Positions 1,290 to 29,188 of a DNA stretch of 40,690 bases are shown one piece after another. The stretch lies in IMG/VR virus record IMGVR_UViG_2541047843_000008; one strand, 5' to 3'. The DNA is from a virus. Its lineage: Duplodnaviria > Heunggongvirae > Uroviricota > Caudoviricetes. A program made the translations under genes and the position numbers. The notes below the pieces were generated by a model that saw only the letters and a program-made list of their open reading frames with translations, made no database searches and had not been told where the DNA came from. How positions within the stretch are numbered: position 1 is the stretch's first letter; the number at the start of each line of letters is the position of its first letter.

Positions 1290-1772
1290 CTATCTGGTCA
1301 AAGTGTCGTACTGTTTTTCGCAGACTCTTCCGGCTTCGGCTGCCCGGTCAGCATACTCTGCCAGTTGTCTGTTTCTCTCGAGAGATTTGCTGAGCACGTC
1401 GGCAAGCAAAACTCCGGTGTCTGCGGCTGACGACCCAGCGCCGACAATGGCGTTATACTGCCTGAGCTGCTCACGGATGGCAAAGAGTTGTTGCTGCAAC
1501 CGGCCAGCGCTAGCGGCAGCATCAAGAGCATCATTGCGCTCCTGGTCGATCCTCTGCTGAGCTTCACGTTCATTGGTCACTTTCTCCTGTTCGTAGTACT
1601 GACGAACTTTGTCTTCTTCGGCTTTGCGGTCTTCTTCCGCCTGAGCATACCCGGCATCGTACTGGCGACTGCCGTGTATATTCCAGGCAACCACTCCTGA
1701 TATGACCAGAACAGCAAGCACTGCCACGATAAGAAACTGTTTCCAGTATGCTTTTACGAATGCCCAGATCAT
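1290..1772 (-). CDS. Rz-like i-spanin (lysis protein)
   Basis: N-terminal TM segment then charged coiled-coil; last gene of lysis cassette; contains embedded out-of-frame lipoprotein ORF. Confidence 0.65.
1298..1573 (-). CDS. Rz1-like o-spanin lipoprotein embedded in Rz (true start probably an internal Met near 1534)
   Basis: Lipobox LALAGCS in alternate frame fully inside Rz; Pro-rich mature part. Confidence 0.5.
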   Translation of the reverse strand: MNVKLSRGSTRSAMMLLMLPLALAGCSNNSLPSVSSSGSITPLSALGRQPQTPEFCLPTCSANLSRETDNWQSMLTGQPKPEESAKNSTTL

Positions 1773-2398
1773 ACCGCCAGCACCTTACTGGCAGTGATGT
1801 ACCGCGCTCGCCGGTCGTCGATGCCGTTCCGGCCACCATTGATAATCAGAGTTACACGTGCAATATCGCCGGTATACTTCATGCATCCTTTGCTGGCGAA
1901 GAACCACGCCGCGCTACGAGCCGCATATCCGTCCTGCGCCAGCAGTTCAGGGCTCTCCAGCAGGTCCACTTTCAGGCCGTTTCCGCAATCACGATAGTTA
2001 TTCAAACCGGTAATCTGGATAAGTCCGCGGCCACGGTAATTCCAGCCATCGCCGGGGGCATTGTTCCCCATGCGTTTGCTGTATACCAGATTTGCGATCG
2101 CGCGCTGGCGCTCAAGTGGCAATGGTGGTTCACCAGCACGGCGCCCCAGTGCATTAGCCTGCCCCTGAGTGAGACGCCCAGCCCGAACGAAGTTAGCCAG
2201 TCCGCTGACACTGTAGTTGAAATTCTCCTGCAACCTGGTGAAGCCCCCAGACTCATGCCCGACTTGAGCAATAAACATTGCCTGATCTTCTGCTTTGCTG
2301 ATACCAAACTCTTTCATCGCAGAAGTTATATGCGAGAACCAGCGTGCGGCCAGTGCCTCGCTGATACCAGCAGCTCGCTGGAATTGTTTAATCTCCAT
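1769..2398 (-). CDS. Endolysin, glycoside hydrolase family 19 (chitinase-like lysozyme)
   Basis: GH19-type motifs QVGHESGGF and [15 protein letters not shown]; start taken at internal ATG (MEIKQF...) overlapping the upstream gene end. Confidence 0.8.
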
Positions 2399-2696
2399 GT
2401 TTAGACCTCGATACTTTAAAAATTTGAACGACGTTACCGCGCGTTTTAATAACCGCAGCCAGCATGACAGCGTTGATAATGACCTCAGATAAATCCACAG
2501 CCATTGGCGTACGTAACCAGATTGCATAGGCGACTCGAACAGGAATACTGGCCGCAGCAACAATCAGGAAATAAGCAAGCCATCCTCCCCACCTTCGATG
2601 TTGAGAGCCGTTACGCCGGAATGTGACAACGCGAATTGCTATGCCAGTGCAAATAACTGCATTAGTGATAAGCAAAAAAAACTCATGCGTTACCAT
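2388..2696 (-). CDS. Small two-TM membrane protein, putative holin/antiholin partner
   Basis: Two hydrophobic segments; sits between holin and endolysin with overlapping ends. Confidence 0.4.
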
Positions 2697-3087
2697 CGTC
2701 TTTTCTCCCCGGAATTAACTCGCGTGGATTATCGGAACGGTGATAGAGCCATATACCAATACGCACAGCGACAATTGCTGACACGAATGCGCCTGCAGAG
2801 AAAACAATCCCTTTTTCAAAAGAGTCCTGCGTGATGGTAGGGATCAGGCTGGCTATGCCGATAAGAATTGATGCTGCTGGTTTGTAAAAGAGAAGGCCGC
2901 AAAGAAAGCTGAGCATCGACAGGAGCACCCGGCGACGGATGGGGTACTCTACTGCAGAGGTAACAAAAATTACCGCCCCAGCCAAAGCCCCTAAAGCAAC
3001 CTCCGGAGGGACACCTGCAATAACTGCAGCAAGAGAACCAAAACTAAGCAACTGATTTAATTGCTCACTTGTTACTTGAGCAGACAT
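2683..3087 (-). CDS. Holin (three predicted TM segments, charged C-terminus)
   Basis: Three hydrophobic helices and basic/acidic C-terminal tail; first gene of lysis cassette. Confidence 0.6.
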   Translation of the reverse strand: MSAQVTSEQLNQLLSFGSLAAVIAGVPPEVALGALAGAVIFVTSAVEYPIRRRVLLSMLSFLCGLLFYKPAASILIGIASLIPTITQDSFEKGIVFSAGAFVSAIVAVRIGIWLYHRSDNPRELIPGRKDDGNA

Positions 3088-8070: not shown

Positions 8071-8397
8071 ATGACAAAACTTGGATTCGTGATGAGAGGT
8101 CCGGTAAGAAGCGGAACTCATGCAAAGCGTAGCAAGAGTCGTATTTTTACTGGTAAGGTTGTAGCACGTAAATCAGCTATTGGCTCGTTCAATAGTGAAA
8201 ATGCGGCATTGCGCCATATTTTTATCAGCACAAAGCCAAGAGCATCCGCTGATGTGCATACAATGTCTATTCCTATCACAAAGAATATCAAGCGGATAAA
8301 AAAGCTCTCATCTGCAGAATCAAAAGAGATATCTTTCCGCCAGCTTAACTCATTAGAAACGCATATGAAGGAAGAGGAATTCGATGTTTTTGAGTGA
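8071..8397 (+). CDS. Hypothetical basic protein, first gene of unassigned two-gene cassette
   Basis: ATG with GGAG SD; K/R/S-rich N-terminus; AT-rich moron-like composition. Confidence 0.5.
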   Translation: MTKLGFVMRGPVRSGTHAKRSKSRIFTGKVVARKSAIGSFNSENAALRHIFISTKPRASADVHTMSIPITKNIKRIKKLSSAESKEISFRQLNSLETHMKEEEFDVFE

Positions 8398-8896
8398 GTA
8401 TAGCGGGAAGGTTATACCTACTGGTGAGTTTAAAACTGATGACTTTCTGATTTCGCTAAAAGATGCTTTTAAACAACACTGGCGTCATGGTCATCATCCT
8501 GATCTGGGAAAAGATACTCTTTTTGAAAGACCAGACGAAGTATTAGGCTTCCATCTCAGAAAGGTTCATGTCAATATTGGTGAATATGCATCATATTCAT
8601 ACTCATGTACTGAACAGTGTTGGGATGAGTGGTCATATGGATTGATTGATGAACAAGGAAATTACAGGCCAAAACCAACCAGTAACGCATATCTCATATA
8701 TGCAGTCAATGAAATAAGAGATGCAGCCTTACTAGCTTATTGGGACCCGCCCGCACACACCAAAGCTAACGCAAAAGTTTGGATGGATTCCGTATTGAAT
8801 TTCACAAAATTATTTCATGAACGAACGAATACAGCTCCACTTAGTAGAAATGTTTATCCGTGGGATTATTCGTACAAATCCAAAAAGCCTGCATAG
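8384..8896 (+). CDS. Hypothetical protein, second gene of cassette (His-rich segment HWRHGHHPD)
   Basis: ORF overlaps upstream gene end by 14 nt (translational coupling); no recognisable family. Confidence 0.5.
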   Translation: MFLSEYSGKVIPTGEFKTDDFLISLKDAFKQHWRHGHHPDLGKDTLFERPDEVLGFHLRKVHVNIGEYASYSYSCTEQCWDEWSYGLIDEQGNYRPKPTSNAYLIYAVNEIRDAALLAYWDPPAHTKANAKVWMDSVLNFTKLFHERTNTAPLSRNVYPWDYSYKSKKPA

Positions 8897-8977
8897 TAGT
8901 TTTTTATGGACGAAACAAAAGTCAGTGCTACACTCATTGACGCCACATTGAGGTGGCTTATAGATGGAAATGTCACA

Positions 8978-9139
8978 ATGAAAAAAGCATTTGCTGCACT
9001 GTTCGTTTTGTTGTCTCTGGTAGCTTCAACTCAGGCCTTTGCCGGTCGTTGTCAGCACGACAGCGACACTGCTGCTGACGGCTCACGCTGCGGTGGGCGT
9101 TCTGCGGATTCCCGCCCAGGCGGCGGTGGCATTCGTTAA
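8978..9139 (+). CDS. Small secreted Cys-containing peptide (signal peptide MKKAFAALFVLLSLVASTQAFA)
   Basis: Internal ATG begins a canonical signal peptide; about 30-aa mature part with 2 Cys and a Gly-rich tail. Confidence 0.4.
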   Translation: MKKAFAALFVLLSLVASTQAFAGRCQHDSDTAADGSRCGGRSADSRPGGGGIR

Positions 9140-9161
9140 AAACAAGGCCGCGAAAGCGGCC
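9136..9161 (-). terminator. Rho-independent terminator for the minus-strand membrane gene
   Basis: Stem GGCCGC / GCGGCC with GAAA loop; U-run on the minus-strand side (TTGTTTTT). Confidence 0.5.
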
Positions 9162-9170
9162 TGTGACATG

Positions 9171-9467
9171 TCACGTCCCTTTTCTGAATGATAGCCATTC
9201 GAAAAATGATGACATTCCACCGCAGACAATAGCAAAGATGATCCCACCAAAGAAGAGAAGGCCAGCCTGCCACCACTCCCACCGCCATACATCCACAGCG
9301 CCAACCATACCAACAATCGCTCCAACAAATGGAATATAGCTCACGATGAAAGCAATGGGGGCTGCAATTATCCAGTGCAATCCCCACCATGATTCAAGCC
9401 CAGCCATAATTGCTGCCAACTGAAAAAGACCAACGACGATATAAACAATGAATCCTATAGCTTGCAT
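9171..9467 (-). CDS. Multi-pass inner-membrane protein immediately after the ejection-protein genes; candidate superinfection-exclusion (SieA-position) protein
   Basis: Three or four hydrophobic helices, Trp-rich; start taken at ATG preceded by AGGTG SD. Confidence 0.5.
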   Translation of the reverse strand: MQAIGFIVYIVVGLFQLAAIMAGLESWWGLHWIIAAPIAFIVSYIPFVGAIVGMVGAVDVWRWEWWQAGLLFFGGIIFAIVCGGMSSFFEWLSFRKGT

Positions 9468-9663
9468 GTAGTCACCTAATTTACCCAGTAAAAATAAGAG
9501 GCCTCCCCTCAATAAGGCTTGCAACAAGAACTACTCCCTGCACAACAAAGATGAACCAGCAAATAGCTTGAGTCTGAGGGTTAAGAAAATATTTGTAGCG
9601 GTCAATAAATAACAATCCACCAGAAATTATCACACTCAAAATAATTAAAAACACAACACTTCC

Positions 9664-12138
9664 TTATTGCGGAGTGACATCCTGTGGTCGCCACCAGTAT
9701 GTCTGGTTAAACTCTTTCTTCGAACGTTGCTCCATTTTACGCAAATAACCTGGTGAAAAATACTCCTGCATCTGGTTAAAGATCATGTGATCGAGAGCCG
9801 CCTTTAAGTACCAGAGATTCGCACCTGGCATCAGACCTTTCCCCAGCTTAACCAGATCACCACCAGTCTGCTCATTCTTCCCTTCCACAGCATTTAACGG
9901 TATGCCCTGAGCAATCTTCACTACGTCATCAACCAGACCAGCTACCGGGCCAAGCATCGACGCCAGCGCGCCGCTTCCGTACCTAGTGTGATCTGACAAT
10001 AAAAAGTCACCGTAAAGGCCAAGACCACCACCTTTCAGTAGAGCACCAAGCCAAAATTTAGCAGCATCTTCTCCTGTCATCTCGCGAGGATTACGACCAG
10101 ACGCAAGGTCGTTAAGTTGCTGCGACAAAGCGCCAAGAATGGTCGTACTGGCAATAAACGTCGCAATATATGCCGCACGCCCACCAGCCGACGGCATACC
10201 CATAGCGCGTGACCAGTGACGCATAACCACCGAGATAGGGAACGATTTAAACAGGAAAACACTTCTCGTTAATTCACCTTTCCATGTTCCACGCTGAATA
10301 CCAGAACCGGTTATCAGTTGCTCACGTGCACCCGGTGTAATAACAGCCATATCAACTTCTTCAGTTACGGCACCGAGCAGTTTACGCATTGCCTCAAATT
10401 TCACGCGTTCAGGCTCACCAAGATGTTTAACTGCTGAATCAGGGATACGCATAATGCTTTCCGGTGTCAGCATCGTATTATTACCGTTCCCCCAGTCCTC
10501 CTGTTGCGCCAGCTTCCATACGCTCCAGTCTGTGTCAGTAATCCCTTTGCTTTTCAGGATACGAAAATCAGAATCATCGAGGCTACGAAGGTCTGGTGTC
10601 CGTGACACTACTTCTCCCAGGCTTCCCATCATGGTTACGCCATAGGCGCGCTTGTGCGCATCTGACCATGCTGTAAGCCCACTGGCACGCATTACCGCCG
10701 TTGCAGCCCAACGAGACACAGACGGCCCCATATTATCCATCGCCCAGCGGTTAACGCTGCCAAGTAGAGATTCCATCGCCAGACCAGCGCGGCGCGCCCG
10801 CGCAAGTTCTGTACGGTTCGTTGGGTCCATAGCTTCAAGCTGGTTGCGGAATAACTGGTTCATTGGAAGGTTGGTAACCTTCGCAGACAGATACATGGTT
10901 CCAAGATCAGAGAACGATGACAGCAACGCGGATCCGAGTCTGCTGGCAACCAGCCAGTTGCGGATATTGTCAGACCATCGCGCGATGTGCGGATTCGCTA
11001 CAGGCTGTGTCTTTCCGGAAATAAAGTTGTACAGATTCTCTGTGTTGTTCGCCAGCCGCTCGACTTTACCGGTTTTACTCGGGTTAGCTGTTGCCGTTTC
11101 TGCCTTCACCTGATCAAGAAGAGAGCGGAAAACATGATCGGGGTTTGGGCCATATGTTTCCACCAGTGCAATATCTTTACTGATACCTTCCAGGTGACCG
11201 ACCATGATTTCCCATAGAGAGCGATCGCCATAAAGTTGCTGATATTGCAGATAGGAATCTGCATCTTTGAAATGTATCTGTCGTGATGCATTACCCCGGT
11301 TAGCACGTGCGCCGGAAATTCGCATTCCGGTATCAGTAAGCTTATTCAGCCCACCAGTAGCGATCGTGTTATAAGCCTCTCCAAGAAATGCAGACAACTC
11401 GGCATCGTTCATCAGTTGTCCATCGACTCGGGTATAATATTTGCGATCCAGCTTACCTATAACATCGCTAACCCACTTATCCTTTGATACCGCCCCAACC
11501 TTTTCCATAGAATGATGTTGAGGGAGCCCCCAGTTTTCGAGATAGCCAATGTCCCCACCAGCATCATTAAACCGGCGGCGCAGTAGCTCTGTCACTTCTC
11601 TCCACGCCTTAGCACCTTTTCTTGCTTTAGCATTGCCAGTATTTTGCCCTCGCATTTCATATACCAGGTCACGCACGCCAGCTTCATCTTCAAACAGGCC
11701 AAAAAAGCGAGGATCAACTGCTTCAAATGCCTCCTGCAATTGACTCAATGCATAATCACGAGTGGCTTTTGTTCTGGATTCAACAGAGAGGAAATTCGAT
11801 TTACCGTCTGCATTAAAAGCAATAGTACGGTTAAGAGCGCCAAGTTTCCCATCAGCCCCTTGATAGCTATTGATAAATTTATCCAATCTCTGACGTGCGG
11901 CTATAGTGAGGGCCACACGACGTTTCTTTAATGCCGCTTCTCGCTGTAATTCTTCAGATGCCAATTGTGCTGCTCGATATAGCCGCTCTGATTCGGAAAG
12001 TTGTCGCCACGACATCGGGTCATCACGAGCAATGGAGCGCATATTTCGATAAATGCGGTCTTCAATGTTCTGTATTTCTCGCGCCGTTAACATGCGCTGC
12101 GCCGCCTGCTGGACCGCTTGTATACATTCCTGTCTCAT
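9664..12138 (-). CDS. Internal virion/ejection protein (large, T7 gp15/gp16 position)
   Basis: 824 aa, translationally coupled in a run of large genes between the tail tubular genes and the tailspike. Confidence 0.65.
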   Translation of the reverse strand: MRQECIQAVQQAAQRMLTAREIQNIEDRIYRNMRSIARDDPMSWRQLSESERLYRAAQLASEELQREAALKKRRVALTIAARQRLDKFINSYQGADGKLGALNRTIAFNADGKSNFLSVESRTKATRDYALSQLQEAFEAVDPRFFGLFEDEAGVRDLVYEMRGQNTGNAKARKGAKAWREVTELLRRRFNDAGGDIGYLENWGLPQHHSMEKVGAVSKDKWVSDVIGKLDRKYYTRVDGQLMNDAELSAFLGEAYNTIATGGLNKLTDTGMRISGARANRGNASRQIHFKDADSYLQYQQLYGDRSLWEIMVGHLEGISKDIALVETYGPNPDHVFRSLLDQVKAETATANPSKTGKVERLANNTENLYNFISGKTQPVANPHIARWSDNIRNWLVASRLGSALLSSFSDLGTMYLSAKVTNLPMNQLFRNQLEAMDPTNRTELARARRAGLAMESLLGSVNRWAMDNMGPSVSRWAATAVMRASGLTAWSDAHKRAYGVTMMGSLGEVVSRTPDLRSLDDSDFRILKSKGITDTDWSVWKLAQQEDWGNGNNTMLTPESIMRIPDSAVKHLGEPERVKFEAMRKLLGAVTEEVDMAVITPGAREQLITGSGIQRGTWKGELTRSVFLFKSFPISVVMRHWSRAMGMPSAGGRAAYIATFIASTTILGALSQQLNDLASGRNPREMTGEDAAKFWLGALLKGGGLGLYGDFLLSDHTRYGSGALASMLGPVAGLVDDVVKIAQGIPLNAVEGKNEQTGGDLVKLGKGLMPGANLWYLKAALDHMIFNQMQEYFSPGYLRKMEQRSKKEFNQTYWWRPQDVTPQ

Positions 12139-13946: not shown

Positions 13947-16456
13947 TGCGGAATATCTCCGGAGAATCTCTGACGCTTCTGTGTCAGATCAAGAACAACA
14001 GGAGAACCATCATCTTTCAGCAGATAACCAGTACCAAGTTTCACCAGGTACTGACTATCGCCGTAACTTTGCAAACCATACTGACCAGGCGGTGTTTTTA
14101 TCCCAGAGCCGACAACTTGTTCATTCCAAGTCTGATTAACCTGCTTATCGAATTGCTCTGCAGACATTCCCCACGGCAAAAGGACATTCCCCATTCCGTT
14201 ATAGTCATGCACGCCACCTGTAGCTACGTTAACAGCCTGTTTCCAGACATCATTGTCAATTTCGCCTGATACCACGCCTTTTTTCGCCATCACACCAGCG
14301 TAATAATCCTTTGCGATCTCGTATGCCATTGATGCCCCCTGAGCGTCACCAGCAAATGCATCCTTCACCATGTCAGAAAACTCAAGGCGAAGATCAGCAT
14401 CTTTAGGCATCGGAATACCTTTCGCATCATCAGTACCTTTACGAGCCGCCGCGCCAGCAAGAATTGTCTGCGCAGCGGTTTCAGGAGACACGGAAACATC
14501 CGGATTAAACCAGTTTTTTTCTGCCAAAATACCACCTGGCTTATCCATCAGTATCCCGGCAACGGCAGCAGATGGAGCGTTGGCACTGATCTGCTGTAGT
14601 GCTGACATATACACCTGCCCACCACCAGTGCTCTGCCTGATGGTATCGAGATATGCTGCCTGTTGGGAAACGGGCGCATCACGAAAGAAAACACCGATCT
14701 GATTGGCCTCGTCTTTGGAAAAGAACGTCAGTGGAGTGCCATATGACTTAGCAAGGTCACTGACCTGAGCAGCACGCAAGGCAACGCTCTGTCCAAAGTT
14801 ATCCTTATTGCTCATGTCGATAGGCTTTGTCTGTCCGGCGGCAAGAGAGAACTGTACAGGATCAGCCTGTCGCTGCTTTATCACCTGACTTGCAGCCGAC
14901 ACAACGTTGTCATAAAGAGCGGCTCGTGCCGCATAACCCTCCCCTGTCTCACCAGTATCCGGGCGTAATTGCTCAACATATGCTGTAATGCTGCTTGTCG
15001 GCATGTTGCGGAAAGAGCCTATATACTGTCCGGCGATTTGCGTATTTCTGAACTCGGTATATCGCAGGTTTCCTTCTCTTACTCCATAAGCTGCAATAAA
15101 ATCAGCCTCACCAGGTGGGTTAGGAAATTCAACGCCACGCATATACGCAGCTGTCGCATCGCGAACCTGGCTGTCAATCATCGTTTTATATTCAGCCTGC
15201 TGCTGCCGACGCAGTTGATCCGCCTGTCGCATAAAACTTGCCTGCGCCTCAGGAGATGCCGCATCGAATGCTGCATTACCGGTATAGCGTTTGGTGTTGG
15301 TTGGAATTGTTGATAAACCAAGTGCTGCACTGACACCAGCAGTTAACTGCTGATCACTGTATGGCTGGCTACCGTTCTCATGATGGATAATGGCTGCACA
15401 AAGCGCCTTCAGGGTATCAGGATTAGATGCATCGAGAGGCTCATCAGCAGAAACGCCAAGTTGTTCGCACACTGCTTTGATATACGACATAGTGTCATTT
15501 TTATCAGCAGGCGGTGCCCAGCGATTAATTATCTCGCTGACGGTATCAATACCCTGCCTCTGATACGACATCAGGTTCCGCCCTAATGCACGAATCCCGT
15601 GTTCAGGTGTTTCGAATTTAGCAAATCGACCATCATCACCGGTCTGGCCTACCCACGGATTAGTTTTGCTGTATTCGAGATTTCCTGGGTTATTGTTGCG
15701 TATGCCACGGGCACGCTCGGAAGAGTCACTATCTGCTACAGCACGGCGAGCTCCAGCAGCAGTATCACTTAACTCGCCATTACTTTGGATGAATGCGGTC
15801 GCATTGTTTGCCGACCACTGGGACAATGCAGCATCAGCAACCTTCTCTTTAAACTCGATTTTCTTGGCCTGGATTTGCTCGTTGCTCCAGCCATGTGCAA
15901 CACCGTACTCCTCAATTTGCTGGAAAGTTTGTTTGTTAGCCAATACGTATGCGGCGTTGTCGCCATACAATGCTGCGGCATTTTTACCATTGTTCAGCAG
16001 TGTCGCCTGAAACTGGCCTTCTTCGTAGGCATTAATTTGCCCTATCTCGTGTCGCCCGGCCTGCGTAGTGAACTGAATGCGCTGCTGCTGCGCCTGCTGC
16101 ATGAAAGCATTACGAGCCTGTTCATCCGGCAGCGACATAGCCAGTTGTTCGACCTGAGCATCAAACTGCTGCGTATACTCATGGCCTTTTCCAATAGCAT
16201 TTTTCCCTTTCAGGTTAAGCAATCCTGTTTCAGGATTATTCAGCAGATCGCTGCTTATCTGACTGAGGTTAAGAGATGCCTCCTGAGCCAGAGCGATATT
16301 GGCACGCTGTTTTGCCTGCCCCAAAACATCAATTGCCTCTGTCCCTGCCCGAACAAAAGCATCACCAATACCTTGCTGAGAAAACGTCTGCAAGCCTGCT
16401 GACTGAACTCCACGACTCTCAACCTGACGTCCGGATACTGTTGGTACGACTGGCAT
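13943..16456 (-). CDS. Internal virion protein with a conserved-looking GIRNNNPGNLEY segment (possible cell-wall-active domain)
   Basis: Start at ATG 16456 overlapping upstream stop (TAATG), GGAGG SD; motif at about 15300-15750. Confidence 0.65.
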   Translation of the reverse strand: MPVVPTVSGRQVESRGVQSAGLQTFSQQGIGDAFVRAGTEAIDVLGQAKQRANIALAQEASLNLSQISSDLLNNPETGLLNLKGKNAIGKGHEYTQQFDAQVEQLAMSLPDEQARNAFMQQAQQQRIQFTTQAGRHEIGQINAYEEGQFQATLLNNGKNAAALYGDNAAYVLANKQTFQQIEEYGVAHGWSNEQIQAKKIEFKEKVADAALSQWSANNATAFIQSNGELSDTAAGARRAVADSDSSERARGIRNNNPGNLEYSKTNPWVGQTGDDGRFAKFETPEHGIRALGRNLMSYQRQGIDTVSEIINRWAPPADKNDTMSYIKAVCEQLGVSADEPLDASNPDTLKALCAAIIHHENGSQPYSDQQLTAGVSAALGLSTIPTNTKRYTGNAAFDAASPEAQASFMRQADQLRRQQQAEYKTMIDSQVRDATAAYMRGVEFPNPPGEADFIAAYGVREGNLRYTEFRNTQIAGQYIGSFRNMPTSSITAYVEQLRPDTGETGEGYAARAALYDNVVSAASQVIKQRQADPVQFSLAAGQTKPIDMSNKDNFGQSVALRAAQVSDLAKSYGTPLTFFSKDEANQIGVFFRDAPVSQQAAYLDTIRQSTGGGQVYMSALQQISANAPSAAVAGILMDKPGGILAEKNWFNPDVSVSPETAAQTILAGAAARKGTDDAKGIPMPKDADLRLEFSDMVKDAFAGDAQGASMAYEIAKDYYAGVMAKKGVVSGEIDNDVWKQAVNVATGGVHDYNGMGNVLLPWGMSAEQFDKQVNQTWNEQVVGSGIKTPPGQYGLQSYGDSQYLVKLGTGYLLKDDGSPVVLDLTQKRQRFSGDIPQ

Positions 16457-17001
16457 TATAATCCTCCGGGTAATCTGGTTCCTGCTGCTGCCCCGATTGG
16501 CGCAGGAGTGCTTTGAGTAAACGGACTCCACGTCCCACCAAACATCTGGTACGCACCGTATGCCTTCAGAGGCGCAGTGAGCAATGTTGTTGCTGCTCCC
16601 ACATTCCCCTGTTTACGGGCTGAACTGGCTTCTGCTTTATAGTTGGCAGCCTGAACCTGATAACCGTAAGCCTCGCGTTGCGCGTTATTCACCGTCGTCA
16701 GCGAATCAAGAGCGCCAAACTGGGCAGTGTCGCCAAATATATCCAGCGCGTTACCGGTAGATAAATCGGCGCCGGTCGCCCCCATTGTCGCCGCCTGTGT
16801 ACCAAGCCGCTGTCGGGTCTCTCTGCGCCGTTGCTCAGCTTCAGCGTTACCTCTGTTTATTGCATCATTTGCCTGAGCTGTGGCTATATCTGCGTTCGCT
16901 TCTGCAACCTTCGAGACATACTTTCCCTGTTGGTACTGGGTGTATGCCTGAATGCCACTCATGGCGAGCATTGCGCCACCAGCAATAACCGGATCGCACA
17001 T
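16456..17001 (-). CDS. Internal virion protein, T7 gp14-like
   Basis: About 180 aa, starts MC..., Ala/Gln-rich, C-terminal APIGAAAGT end similar to the T7 gp14 pattern as recalled. Confidence 0.55.
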   Translation of the reverse strand: MCDPVIAGGAMLAMSGIQAYTQYQQGKYVSKVAEANADIATAQANDAINRGNAEAEQRRRETRQRLGTQAATMGATGADLSTGNALDIFGDTAQFGALDSLTTVNNAQREAYGYQVQAANYKAEASSARKQGNVGAATTLLTAPLKAYGAYQMFGGTWSPFTQSTPAPIGAAAGTRLPGGL

Positions 17002-26069: not shown

Positions 26070-26146
26070 GTGGCATTAGCTCAGTCGGACAGAGCAACCG
26101 CCTTCTAAGCGGTTGGTCGCAGGTTCGAATCCTGCATGCCACGCCA
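26070..26146 (+). tRNA. tRNA-Arg (anticodon UCU, reads AGA), phage-encoded
   Basis: Cloverleaf read by hand: acceptor GTGGCAT/ATGCCAC, D-arm GCTC..GAGC, anticodon loop CUUCUAA, T-arm GCAGGTTCGAATCCTGC, discriminator G, CCA end. Confidence 0.9.
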
Positions 26147-26189
26147 GAATCACGCCTAAGGACCGTGATGCCAGAAGTTCCAGGTGCTT

Positions 26190-26232
26190 GGCGGTGATGG
26201 TTTCCCTTGAAGGACTATCACCGCCCTTTTTA
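26190..26232 (+). terminator. Rho-independent terminator after the tRNA
   Basis: 9-bp stem GGCGGTGAT / ATCACCGCC followed by CTTTTTA. Confidence 0.5.
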
Positions 26233-26349
26233 CAGCAGGACGCCATTGCGATGACTTCATGCTGTAAACCAGTACAGCCACGGAAGGCATAACTCATTGC
26301 TTCCAGTTCGCCCGGTTCGCAGGGCATTTTTTTAAGGTGAGATTAGACT

Positions 26350-26721
26350 ATGAGTGAAAAAGACATTGAATCTGAAATTCAGGCTAAAGGTTTAGCCGCG
26401 CCGCGCGTTACGCCAGACCATATCGAGAGCATTATTGCTCAGGAGGCATATTTCACAGCAGAAGATGGTGCCTTTGGCGTAGCCATAAAAGCGAAACATA
26501 CTGGCGGAGAGGTAAACTACCAGCCGCACGAATCACTTTCTCTGCTGACGTTCTGCGTCCTGGTGCTGCGCAACGGCTTCACCGTCACCGGAGAGAGCGC
26601 CTGTGCAAGCCCGGAAAACTTTGATGCAGAAATTGGTCGGAAGATTGCCCGACAGAATGCTGTAAACAAAATCTGGATGCTCGAAGGTTACTTGCTGAAG
26701 CAGAAGTTAAGCGAGCAATAA
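26350..26721 (+). CDS. Hypothetical moron protein downstream of the tRNA
   Basis: ATG with AAGGTGAG SD; opposite strand to the flanking packaging and head genes. Confidence 0.55.
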   Translation: MSEKDIESEIQAKGLAAPRVTPDHIESIIAQEAYFTAEDGAFGVAIKAKHTGGEVNYQPHESLSLLTFCVLVLRNGFTVTGESACASPENFDAEIGRKIARQNAVNKIWMLEGYLLKQKLSEQ

Positions 26722-26741
26722 CACCGTGACATATCACAAAC

Positions 26742-26811: not shown

Positions 26812-28287
26812 TTAAGCATAGGGATCGTAATCTGTAATGGCCCTTCCCTGCTGGCTTTGCTGTCCTGGTATATTTATGCGTTTCGAGACCGGGAAAGCAA
26901 ACGTCAGCAGTAGCGCATCGCCTTTACCCGGCGAACGCCCAAGCCGCTCCTTGATATCTTCCTTCGGTTCGATAACGATTTTACCGTCCACTCGAACTTT
27001 GTACTCTGCCGCCGACAGGTCGTCCGCTGTTTCCTGGTCATCCAGCATGCCGCCCAGCCTCAGCCATGTCTTGCATGAGTTGAACATCTCCCCACGCTTG
27101 TTGAGCATCTGCGGGTCAGTAGACGCGCCACCGAACGGAACAAGTTGCCATGTACGACCCCAGCCGTCACCGATTGACTTCAAACCGGTTCCGTAACCGA
27201 AGTCGATGAACACCGCGTCAGCCTGATACTGGTCTTCAAAGTCAGCGATACGCTTCGCCATAATCAGATCGTCGGTAGTCTTGTTGCCAGTCCACAGCAC
27301 CTTACTGTGTAGCCCCTGCCGCAGGTATATCACAGCGTCATCAACGCCGGAGTATGCCGGGTCAACGCCGATTATCACCGGAGCATGTGCAACCTGCGCA
27401 GCGGTTACCACCCGTTTCATTGCCTCGTCAGTAAGACCGGTAGGGATAAACTGCAATTCAGATGCATCAGGGAATATGCCACGCACACGGATTTTAACGA
27501 AGTCGCTGTCTTCCCCGTAGTCATCAACCCATTTCTGCAACTGCTGTTTGTTGGTACCTTCCACCGTCCGACTGTCAATCTGCGCAGTTTTCCAGCGGTG
27601 TTTATACTTGCGGAAACATTCACGGAAACGTCCGGTATTACGCGTCGGGTTTCCGAACGCCACCCAGATAATCTCAGTGTCTTCGTCCGTTAGCGCACCT
27701 TCGGCAACTTCCCACACCAGATCCGCAATGTTCGACGCTTCATCAAACACCACGATGATGCGTTTGCGCTCGTTGTGTAGTCCGGCGAACGCCTCAGTGT
27801 TGTGCTCAGACCAGGGTATTGCGTCAGCACGCCACCGCTTGTCGTGCCCAGGGTCATTGCTGTACATCGCGGTAGCGGTACAGGTAAACCAGTCTTTCGT
27901 GATAGCAAGGTTCGACCACTTGATAATTTCCGGCCAGGTCTTCGTTCGTAGCTGGTTGTCGGTGTTGGCGGTCACCACGACCTTACAATCCTCGCAAGTG
28001 GACATGCCCCAGTTGATCAGCATTGAGATGAATGCGGATTTACCAATACCGTGACCAGAAGCACGTGCCAGCATAAGCGGCTGATATCTCGTCTCTGGAT
28101 TCTGCAGGTGATCACGTATCTCTCGGAACGCATCGGCCTGCCACTGACGTGGACCGGTGGCATGTGCCAGTTCAGTACCCTCTTCCCCCCACGGGAACGC
28201 ATAGAGGGCATAGCCAAGCGGATCGTGAGTGAACCCTGCAATATCCTCGATCAACTGCTCTTCAGGAGATAACGCTGTATCTGTCAC
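26812..28287 (-). CDS. Terminase large subunit
   Basis: 491 aa; Walker A-like ASGHGIGKS; acidic nuclease-type C-terminal half; GTG start overlapping the TerS stop. Confidence 0.9.
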   Translation of the reverse strand: MTDTALSPEEQLIEDIAGFTHDPLGYALYAFPWGEEGTELAHATGPRQWQADAFREIRDHLQNPETRYQPLMLARASGHGIGKSAFISMLINWGMSTCEDCKVVVTANTDNQLRTKTWPEIIKWSNLAITKDWFTCTATAMYSNDPGHDKRWRADAIPWSEHNTEAFAGLHNERKRIIVVFDEASNIADLVWEVAEGALTDEDTEIIWVAFGNPTRNTGRFRECFRKYKHRWKTAQIDSRTVEGTNKQQLQKWVDDYGEDSDFVKIRVRGIFPDASELQFIPTGLTDEAMKRVVTAAQVAHAPVIIGVDPAYSGVDDAVIYLRQGLHSKVLWTGNKTTDDLIMAKRIADFEDQYQADAVFIDFGYGTGLKSIGDGWGRTWQLVPFGGASTDPQMLNKRGEMFNSCKTWLRLGGMLDDQETADDLSAAEYKVRVDGKIVIEPKEDIKERLGRSPGKGDALLLTFAFPVSKRINIPGQQSQQGRAITDYDPYA

Positions 28288-28880
28288 TGATTACCATCCT
28301 GACGTTCTTTGAGTCGCTTCCTGGCTGCTGCTATGCGATCAGCAATTGTCACATTCACATTAACATCCAGACGTTCTTTGAACGCGTTGACATCAACATG
28401 CTTACCAATCAGCTCAAGGTTCTTCACCTTGTCAGGCCATTTAATTTTTTTGAGGATTGTCTCTATCGAATCCTCGTTCATGTTCATGATGGTCGATGAC
28501 AGATCAAAGCCACTAAGCGTAGTGCGCCAGATTTTCGGCCACTCGCGGATTGGCTTAAGGCTCCCATCGTCGTTGAGGATGTCGATCACGTCCATCTGGT
28601 CGATCTCCACCAGGCGCATGAGAACGTAATCAGCACTGACGCGCATTCGTTTGTTGCGCTCCTCCATCAACTCGGCAATCCGTTTTTGAATGCGTTCATC
28701 GCGCATCATGACACTGGCTTTAACTGCCGCTGTATTTGGGGAGAATCCTGCGTTAATCGCTGCCTGAGTCTGGTTTTCAGGCGTTTTGATGTATGACTGG
28801 CAATAAGCCTCCTGCATTGCTGTTAGTGGCTTAAATTGCGTTGATTTGCGTTTATAGGTTTTAGGTTCAGCAGGCATCAT
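28284..28880 (-). CDS. Terminase small subunit
   Basis: KPLTAMQEAYCQSYIKTPENQTQAAINAGFS matches the common terminase small subunit N-terminal HTH pattern; start taken at internal ATG after a terminator. Confidence 0.7.
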   Translation of the reverse strand: MMPAEPKTYKRKSTQFKPLTAMQEAYCQSYIKTPENQTQAAINAGFSPNTAAVKASVMMRDERIQKRIAELMEERNKRMRVSADYVLMRLVEIDQMDVIDILNDDGSLKPIREWPKIWRTTLSGFDLSSTIMNMNEDSIETILKKIKWPDKVKNLELIGKHVDVNAFKERLDVNVNVTIADRIAAARKRLKERQDGNQ

Positions 28881-28887
28881 AACCACC

Positions 28888-28916
28888 GTGGTAATAGTTA
28901 CCGTTGTGGTAATAGT
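28888..28916. repeat. Tandem direct repeat GTGGTAATAGT x2 in the terminase leader
   Basis: Two 11-bp copies 18 bp apart, between an upstream terminator and the TerS start. Confidence 0.5.
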
Positions 28917-28931
28917 ACCATGCAAAATAAA

Positions 28932-28955
28932 GCCGCCATAGTTGGCGGCAGTATT
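28932..28955 (-). terminator. Rho-independent terminator separating nin-like genes from the packaging/late operon
   Basis: Stem GCCGCCA / TGGCGGC with 4-nt loop, U-run (UUUAUUUUG) on the minus-strand side. Confidence 0.5.
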
Positions 28956-29188
28956 CAAAGTCCATCAAATTCATCGTAAAAACTCTCGTCAAGATACCCT
29001 TCCCATTTACCGCGAATGAAAATTACATCCTCGCCGCAAGGGTGCTGACTGTCGATAACTATATCCCTCCTGGCGCAACCATACTTATGCATGAGAAATT
29101 TAACCTCTTTCGGAAAATTTGCTGAGTTATCTCTCATATCTTCAAGGTCGTAGCGTATTTTTGGCATAACACCTTCGTGACATGTCAC
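28955..29188 (-). CDS. Hypothetical protein
   Basis: 77-aa ORF in nin-like block. Confidence 0.4.
   Translation of the reverse strand: MTCHEGVMPKIRYDLEDMRDNSANFPKEVKFLMHKYGCARRDIVIDSQHPCGEDVIFIRGKWEGYLDESFYDEFDGL

Follow-up and report, generated by a model that had tools for sequence, protein, structure and literature searches.

SieA of phage P22 is an inner-membrane protein with three transmembrane segments that blocks DNA injection, and escape from it comes about through mutations in gp16 and gp20 (PMC10883804). A second precedent is gp15 of HK97, a small exclusion protein of the inner membrane that is derived from YebO, encoded inside the late operon and expressed by the prophage (PMC3594210). 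For Uetakeviruses, our literature search found no exclusion studies beyond O-antigen modification. A preliminary description of the window (the whole stretch of DNA analysed, 40,690 nucleotides) had drawn attention to a gene for a 98-aa membrane protein next to the ejection-protein genes, and had proposed from its position that it is a functional analogue of sieA. The window is an E. coli prophage of the Uetakevirus (epsilon15/phiV10-like) type. The comparisons reported here establish the 98-aa gene and a 57-aa gene upstream of it as accessory cargo in a hypervariable slot for envelope proteins at the 3' end of the late operon.

Gene order compared with P22, HK97 and T4

The gene order of P22 does recur in the window, where the last ejection gene, a small membrane gene, an antirepressor gene and the tailspike gene follow one another. 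The 98-aa protein also resembles SieA in its gene's place beside the last ejection gene, in having some three hydrophobic segments and in its predicted location in the inner membrane. The likeness stops at orientation, promoter and homology. In P22, sieA and gene 16 are on opposite strands, and sieA, with a promoter of its own, precedes the mnt/arc/ant genes and the tailspike, whereas the 98-aa and 57-aa genes lie on the late-operon strand, 9-13 nt from their upstream ORFs, and show no promoter-like site. SieA has 162-164 residues, and its comparison by BLASTP with the 98-aa protein gave E = 20; as the two share no Pfam, NCBIfam or PADLOC family either, homology was rejected. SieA-type genes are confined to P22-like phages, in contrast to the 98-aa family, which is broad and not phage-specific. 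The positional argument for a sieA analogue is weaker than first stated. In orientation, the analogue of sieA is a convergent 53-aa gene and not the 98-aa gene; this 53-aa gene is followed in the plus-strand block by a YafO-like gene, its 108-aa partner and a Bro-N gene.

HK97 gp15 is the closer organisational model. Both are late-strand genes for small proteins, set among the late structural genes of a temperate enterobacterial phage; both are variably present among relatives, and the members of both families are mostly or also found in bacteria outside phages (PMC3594210). With this precedent, late-strand position and non-phage relatives no longer count as objections to an exclusion function. 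The 98-aa gene is indeed a late-operon moron with bacterial non-phage homologues, which is a likeness of organisation and not of membership: the YebO family gave no match for the 98-aa protein, and Pfam at E up to 1 gave only a weak holin match. The gp15 moron has its own promoter and is expressed in lysogens, whereas no promoter-like site was found for the 98-aa gene. In addition, gp15 has a single transmembrane helix, compared with three to four helices in the 98-aa protein. T4 Imm, one of several small membrane proteins that block injection, resembles the 98-aa protein as a small multi-helix protein of the inner membrane for which expression in lytic growth is plausible, but it comes from another phage type and another gene context; the Pfam model Imm_superinfect did not match the 98-aa protein at E up to 1.

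The late operon and its two terminal genes

Escherichia phage phiv142-3 and many E. coli chromosomes match positions 8900-9900 of the window at 99-100 % identity, and the annotated relatives are the Uetakeviruses epsilon15, phiV10 and SPN1S. The prophage adjoins yfgI in RefSeq. All its late genes are on the minus strand (Table 1), and those upstream of the cassette are internal-virion or ejection genes. The last of them encodes an 824-aa protein that matches PHROG 684 ('virion structural protein', E = 0) and is syntenic with epsilon15 gp17 and phiV10p20; an SLT domain is found in the Cronobacter counterpart, placed by synteny, of the gp15-like protein. Homologues of T7 gp14-16 in epsilon15 are given in a review of ejection proteins (PMC8954989). 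The small membrane ORFs follow the last internal-virion gene on the same strand, just as first described.

Table 1. Features of the window discussed in the text, in order of position.
Feature	Coordinates	Strand	Basis or remark
Lysis cassette	1290..3087		Complete: two holin-family genes, GH19 endolysin, spanin; 6 kb from the 98-aa gene, tailspike in between
Overlapping 108-aa and 170-aa genes	8071-8896	+	
53-aa signal-peptide protein	8978..9139	+	PHROG 14503 'membrane associated protein'
Rho-independent terminator of the late operon	9145..9162	-	AGGCCGC-TTTC-GCGGCCT then TTGTTTTT
12-bp perfect palindrome GTGACATGTCAC	9163..9174	.	Overlaps 98-aa stop codon; conserved slot edge
98-aa Trp-rich, Gly-rich multi-helix membrane protein gene	9171..9467	-	ORF list, omega, AF2, family alignment; ATG at 9467, TGA stop at 9173..9171
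57-aa two-helix membrane ORF	9481..9654	-	ORF list; GTG start at 9654, SD AAGGAAG, stop at 9483..9481
gp17-like 824-aa internal virion (ejection) protein gene	9664..12138	-	PHROG 684, synteny; stop codon at 9666..9664
Internal proteins, 862 aa + 600 aa + 824 aa	16531..9664	-	
T7_gp14-family core protein	17001..16456	-	T7_gp14 family match
tRNA-Arg(TCT) + Phage_gp49_66 family gene island	26070-26721	+	Between large-terminase and portal genes
Small terminase	28958..28284	-	Pfam Terminase_2

The 57-aa ORF opens 9 nt after the gp17-like stop codon, and the ATG of the 98-aa gene comes 13 nt after the end of the 57-aa ORF, with the Shine-Dalgarno sequence AGGTGA 4 nt 5' of it. In the comparison with Klebsiella phage BUCT711, synonymous and non-synonymous changes number 44 and 8 in the 98-aa frame (omega 0.022) and 18 and 15 in the 57-aa frame (omega 0.17), while frames other than the coding ones give omega above 1; both ORFs are therefore real genes, kept by purifying selection. 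The possible upstream peptide of about 58 aa with a GTG start, noted earlier on the same strand, is accordingly genuine, with a corrected length of 57 aa. NCBI annotates both products as 'hypothetical protein' in some genomes. In RefSeq the 57-aa ORF goes unannotated in the arrangement seen in the window, and the same protein is annotated in other genomes. The GenBank entry of phiv142-3 gives the 98-aa gene as Orf12 with a TTG start and 118 aa, overlapping the 57-aa ORF. We reject this start, because the homologues all begin at MQAIG and the extension is broken by a stop codon in the Klebsiella phage.

The 98-aa product is identical to RefSeq WP_001147904.1, an accession that our literature search found mentioned in no paper; orf12 is not discussed in the main text or in one supplementary file of the phiv142-3 qRT-PCR study. 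The protein matches PHROG 3075 over its full length (residues 1-98 on positions 1-98, E = 1.6e-54); no function is assigned to this PHROG, and the match is thus uninformative as to mechanism. The earlier account of a multi-pass, Trp-rich hydrophobic protein with a good Shine-Dalgarno sequence holds. Eight of the 98 residues are Trp (8.2 %) and 13 are Gly, GRAVY is 1.24, and the transmembrane prediction suggested at that stage gives three hydrophobic segments by hydropathy (about 1-23, 33-57 and 71-85) and, in an AlphaFold2 model with pLDDT 91, four helices (2-28, 32-42, 46-59 and 65-97). Helices 2 and 3 of the model may cross the membrane or form a re-entrant hairpin. From the positive-inside rule, the basic C-terminus is probably cytoplasmic. 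Glycine-zipper-like motifs read directly from the sequence (G49xxxG53xxG56) would point to helices that pack closely or to an oligomer.

The 57-aa protein has two hydrophobic segments by hydropathy, and its ORF has a GC content of 36.8 %, against 49.5 % for the gp17-like gene. Homologues with 67-98 % identity occur in E. coli, Citrobacter, Klebsiella, Salmonella and Enterobacter, always directly 3' of a gp17-like gene and with or without the 98-aa gene; the next gene may be the 98-aa gene, a lipoprotein gene (Salmonella Muenchen) or the gene for a 92-aa membrane protein (K. oxytoca). Homology with phiV10p21 or epsilon15 gp18 was rejected for want of any BLASTP alignment, and the likeness to these two is confined to position and two-helix architecture. 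Searches of Pfam, NCBIfam and PADLOC with the 57-aa and 98-aa ORFs gave nothing above threshold.

A hypervariable slot for envelope proteins

The slot in which the cassette lies runs from the 3' end of the gp17-like gene to a palindrome plus terminator, and both of these edges are conserved. We surveyed IMG/VR loci with the palindrome plus terminator, together with loci already collected, using the gp17-like C-terminus as anchor. Eight alternative contents were found among the 86 loci listed, with counts that depend on the search pattern, cover these loci and are not frequencies: the 57-aa plus 98-aa genes of the window (37 loci), a 46-aa peptide with two transmembrane segments (15), a 137-aa lipoprotein (15), a small transmembrane ORF plus a 126-aa lipoprotein (9), a 104-aa transmembrane protein (3), a 56-aa ORF plus a 92-aa protein with two transmembrane segments (3), a 102-aa secreted protein with a signal peptide plus the 98-aa protein (3), and epsilon15 gp18, of 64 aa and two transmembrane segments (1). 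A ninth content, from Cronobacter prophages collected separately, is a 99-aa homologue alone, which begins 1 nt after the upstream gene. The products of all nine contents are membrane proteins, lipoproteins or secreted proteins, and the alternative cassettes have no known function in Pfam and PHROGs. Two unrelated lipoproteins were seen in the slot of other E. coli and Salmonella prophages, one of 126-127 aa (lipobox LVGC) and one of 137 aa (LISAC). In IAI39, where the gp17-like gene is truncated and an IS3 transposase gene lies at the truncated end, the slot lipoprotein gene nevertheless remains annotated.

Between the same gp17-like 3' end and the palindrome plus terminator, phiV10 and SPN1S carry only the 46-aa two-helix ORF. 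In phiV10 this ORF stands in place of the 57-aa and 98-aa genes between flanks that are 99.3 % identical over the matched part; the corresponding identity of the gp17-like 3' end in SPN1S is 86 %. The full two-gene cassette is present in 204 of 5426 complete E. coli genomes (about 4 %), among them that of ETEC H10407 (NC_017633, 2851328-2852093). Judged by the Juhala/Hendrix definition of a moron, presence or absence is polymorphic between collinear phages (phiV10, the eight contents among the 86 loci listed, and Cronobacter). In base composition the 57-aa ORF is AT-rich, and the 98-aa ORF, at 46.5 % GC, lies near the phage average of 48.8 %. The terminator is the conserved one of the operon, and no sigma-70-like site of at least 9/12 was found. 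Such an envelope-only hot-spot with nine contents is typical of exclusion or conversion loci. We regard the anatomy of the two-gene cassette and of the slot as secure, with high confidence.

Spread of the 98-aa gene

The 57-aa and 98-aa genes are independent units, since each occurs without the other, and an obligatory pair was accordingly rejected. The 57-aa gene travels with the gp17-like gene, while the 98-aa gene is separately mobile and has been taken up by temperate phages of Enterobacterales. In podophages of Cronobacter, Salmonella, Klebsiella and Yersinia, it follows the last internal-virion gene without the 57-aa gene. In a lambdoid (siphophage) prophage it comes after the GpJ and tail-fibre genes, beside dinI and the host gene pepN, and a metagenomic prophage has a copy near the integrase; in both settings the neighbours bear no relation to the 57-aa ORF. 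The copies that Klebsiella plasmids carry are located inside integrated Uetakevirus prophages. Identity of the homologues is about 50 % across families of Enterobacterales. Other morons flank the gene, namely a Bro-N antirepressor, YafO-like or HicAB toxin modules and a secreted peptide. In three lineages other than that of the window it adjoins the upstream late-strand gene, with a gap of 1 nt in Cronobacter and 8 nt in Klebsiella. As the 98-aa gene abuts the upstream late-strand gene in Cronobacter and Klebsiella, late co-transcription is the default.

On the plus strand, the product of the 170-aa gene is a YafO-family type II toxin in RefSeq, and its Pfam match to YafO_toxin is sub-threshold (E = 9.5e-4); with the overlapping 108-aa gene it forms a candidate toxin-antitoxin pair. 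At the equivalent place, Cronobacter prophages and a Klebsiella plasmid-borne prophage carry HicA/DUF1902. The 53-aa gene, which is convergent with the 98-aa gene and whose product is a 'transmembrane anchored protein' in some RefSeq genomes, occurs together with the terminator in other phages as well, for example TL-2011b.

A membrane domain found beyond phages

Word-indexed searches returned about 50-80 clusters of the 98-aa family, all named 'hypothetical'. An exhaustive profile search returned 739 clusters when E was limited to 1e-3 and 309 when it was limited to 1e-10. Matches at species level include Microvirga, Thermoflexus, Desulfovibrio and Buttiauxella, and in Buttiauxella the copy is on the chromosome, with umuDC-like and yejM-like genes on either side as judged by eye from the translations of the flanking ORFs. 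The domain also occurs fused to DUF805, RDD, MORN repeats and zinc ribbons, and once as a four-fold tandem repeat. Conserved in the family are Q16, A19, G23, W27, G29, Y44-x-P46, G49, G53, G56-A57, W61/W63/W65, Q67-A68 and L71-F72, of which Q16, P46, G53, G56-A57 and W63 are invariant in the alignment. This pattern of small and polar residues would fit tight helix packing.

No Pfam, NCBIfam or PADLOC model covers the domain. A sequence search of the PDB with the family profile found nothing, Foldseek of the model against the PDB gave no significant match (best E = 3.9, with K+ channel pores at the top), and Foldseek against BFVD likewise gave nothing significant. In Microvirga and another alphaproteobacterium, the gene after a distant homologue in each case encodes a small membrane product, a protein or a domain, in which the motif YGYYxxLRIV is conserved; this product may be a conserved partner of the 98-aa homologue outside phages.

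Terminator, palindrome and promoter signals

The terminator hairpin (9162..9145) with its T-run has a dG of -17.2 kcal/mol and a z of -2.6. The preliminary description had taken it for the cassette's own terminator. It is strong and not private to the cassette: it is bidirectional, shared with the convergent 53-aa gene, and it is the conserved end of the operon, kept in every Uetakevirus examined and annotated as a terminator at the corresponding place in phiV10 and epsilon15. An internal terminator between the ORFs was considered and rejected. The only match, at 9511..9495 within the 57-aa ORF, scores weakly (z +0.9) and lacks conservation, so the gp17-like gene and the 57-aa and 98-aa ORFs form one unit up to the operon terminator.

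The palindrome GTGACATGTCAC abuts the terminator hairpin and contains the TGA of the 98-aa gene. Every Uetakevirus locus has a single copy adjoining the slot terminator, irrespective of the slot content, and the palindrome is conserved there in epsilon15, SPN1S, phiV10 and the Cronobacter and Klebsiella phages. The window has three copies (9163-9174, 26726-26737 and 29177-29188), two exact and one with a single mismatch (GTGACATATCAC), against an estimated expectation of well under 0.01 for an exact 12-mer in 40 kb. One copy precedes the late-operon terminator at the operon's 3' end, another marks the 5' border of the small-terminase gene cluster, and a third lies directly ahead of the terminator of a plus-strand island. 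The tRNA-Arg island closes with the palindrome variant and its own terminator. A role as the epsilon15 repressor operator was rejected, the annotated operators being ATTACC-N4-GGTAAT. The palindrome may be a regulator-binding site or a recombination boundary.

A promoter scan of the window found no sigma-70-like site of at least 9/12 5' of the cassette, and scans of the window and of two independent contexts were uninformative. Reading the sequence, we noticed an extended -10-like element, TGTGATAAT, at 9634..9626 on the minus strand in the 5' part of the 57-aa ORF, which is only partly conserved in Klebsiella relatives. It could be the source of a lysogen transcript for the 98-aa gene, or it may be a by-product of AT-rich coding sequence.

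Possible functions of the 98-aa protein

The reading that we rank first, tentatively and as one more apt to fail than to hold, is that the 98-aa protein excludes superinfecting phages at the inner membrane, as HK97 gp15 and P22 SieA do. It is ranked first because an envelope-only hot-spot beside antirepressor and toxin modules most resembles exclusion or conversion loci. Purifying selection, the membrane character of the products, the mobility of the 98-aa gene across phage types and the HK97 gp15 precedent also speak for it. The protein would insert in the cytoplasmic membrane as a compact, glycine-packed helical bundle, with its basic C-terminal tail inside the cell and the Trp-rich WRWEWWQ loop at the periplasmic interface, and it would disturb the step at which the genome of an incoming phage crosses the membrane; it might act in the lysogen, during late lytic growth, or in both. 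Several observations count against exclusion: there is no SieA homology, no Pfam, NCBIfam or PADLOC match above threshold and no promoter-like site, late co-transcription is the default, and the omega of 0.02, the identity of about 50 % across families and the distant chromosomal and fused relatives fit a generic membrane role equally well. A wider proposal, in which the recombination-prone slot of Uetakeviruses trades unrelated envelope proteins as devices for exclusion or protection of progeny and the 98-aa protein founds a new class of DNA-entry blockers of the inner membrane, recruited from the large bacterial domain family, we consider unlikely.

Such a generic role could be that of a host-physiology factor in the membrane, of the lysogenic-conversion kind, which would keep the ancestral activity of the domain, for instance as an oligomeric channel or a homeostasis or stress module, and be of direct benefit to the lysogen or the infected cell. 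The spread of the domain outside phages (739 clusters), the chromosomal Buttiauxella copy, the fusions to DUF805, RDD, MORN and zinc ribbons, the four-fold tandem repeat, the extreme conservation with invariant Gln, Gly, Pro and Trp positions and the glycine-zipper-like motifs all speak for it. We nevertheless hold it to be somewhat unlikely: functional annotation is absent throughout the family, the closest Foldseek matches, to K+ channel pore domains, fall well short of significance (E above 3), and the alternation of unrelated envelope proteins in the slot would be left unexplained. Expression from the end of the late transcript would also suit a lysis accessory of holin-like, antiholin or pinholin type that tunes the timing of lysis. 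The cassette is co-oriented and tightly packed with the gp17-like gene, with no terminator in between, and the protein shares its size, helix number, hydrophobic Gly-rich helices and late-operon location with class-V holins (Phage_holin_5_2, Hol44), to which it has a weak Pfam match (E = 0.027). That match was rejected as an assignment, as it scores 15.2 bits against a gathering cut-off of 29.2 and recurs in only 3 of 25 family members. The gene is not beside the endolysin gene, the phage has its own holins in a complete lysis cassette 6 kb away, phiV10, SPN1S and epsilon15 have no 98-aa gene, and the family is present in non-phage contexts, all of which makes a lysis function quite improbable.

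Membrane effectors are common in defence systems, and a small, oligomerisation-prone membrane protein in a moron island with a YafO-like toxin module might be a toxic pore-former for abortive infection, which would collapse the membrane potential on sensing a superinfecting phage. With no PADLOC match and no conserved sensor partner, the up- and downstream partners differing in every context, this is very unlikely. Least credible of all is a component of the virion or ejectosome, or an assembly factor for the internal core proteins. Its appeal is that in podophages of five lineages (E. coli, Cronobacter, Salmonella, Klebsiella and Yersinia) the gene comes straight after the three large genes for internal virion proteins, with a gap of only 1 nt in Cronobacter. 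However, phiV10 and SPN1S do without the gene behind gp17-like 3' ends that are 99.3 % and 86 % identical over the matched part, and the gene is absent from epsilon15 as well; it also occurs in a siphophage and in non-phage genomes, and a protein with a GRAVY of 1.24 would be insoluble in the capsid.

To conclude, the cassette is an ordinary kind of object, a set of phage accessory membrane genes, with an unusually clean slot architecture, and the slot is found in a common prophage group of E. coli, Salmonella and Klebsiella. Should exclusion prove false, the 98-aa gene would be one more conserved hypothetical membrane protein; even then, the anatomy of the slot and the corrected gene starts would serve annotation. 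Should superinfection exclusion prove true, the slot would provide about nine unrelated and very small candidate entry blockers, which would help to explain what limits the host range of phages used in therapy and typing, phiV10 among them, and a membrane domain of hundreds of clusters with no Pfam model would gain its first function.
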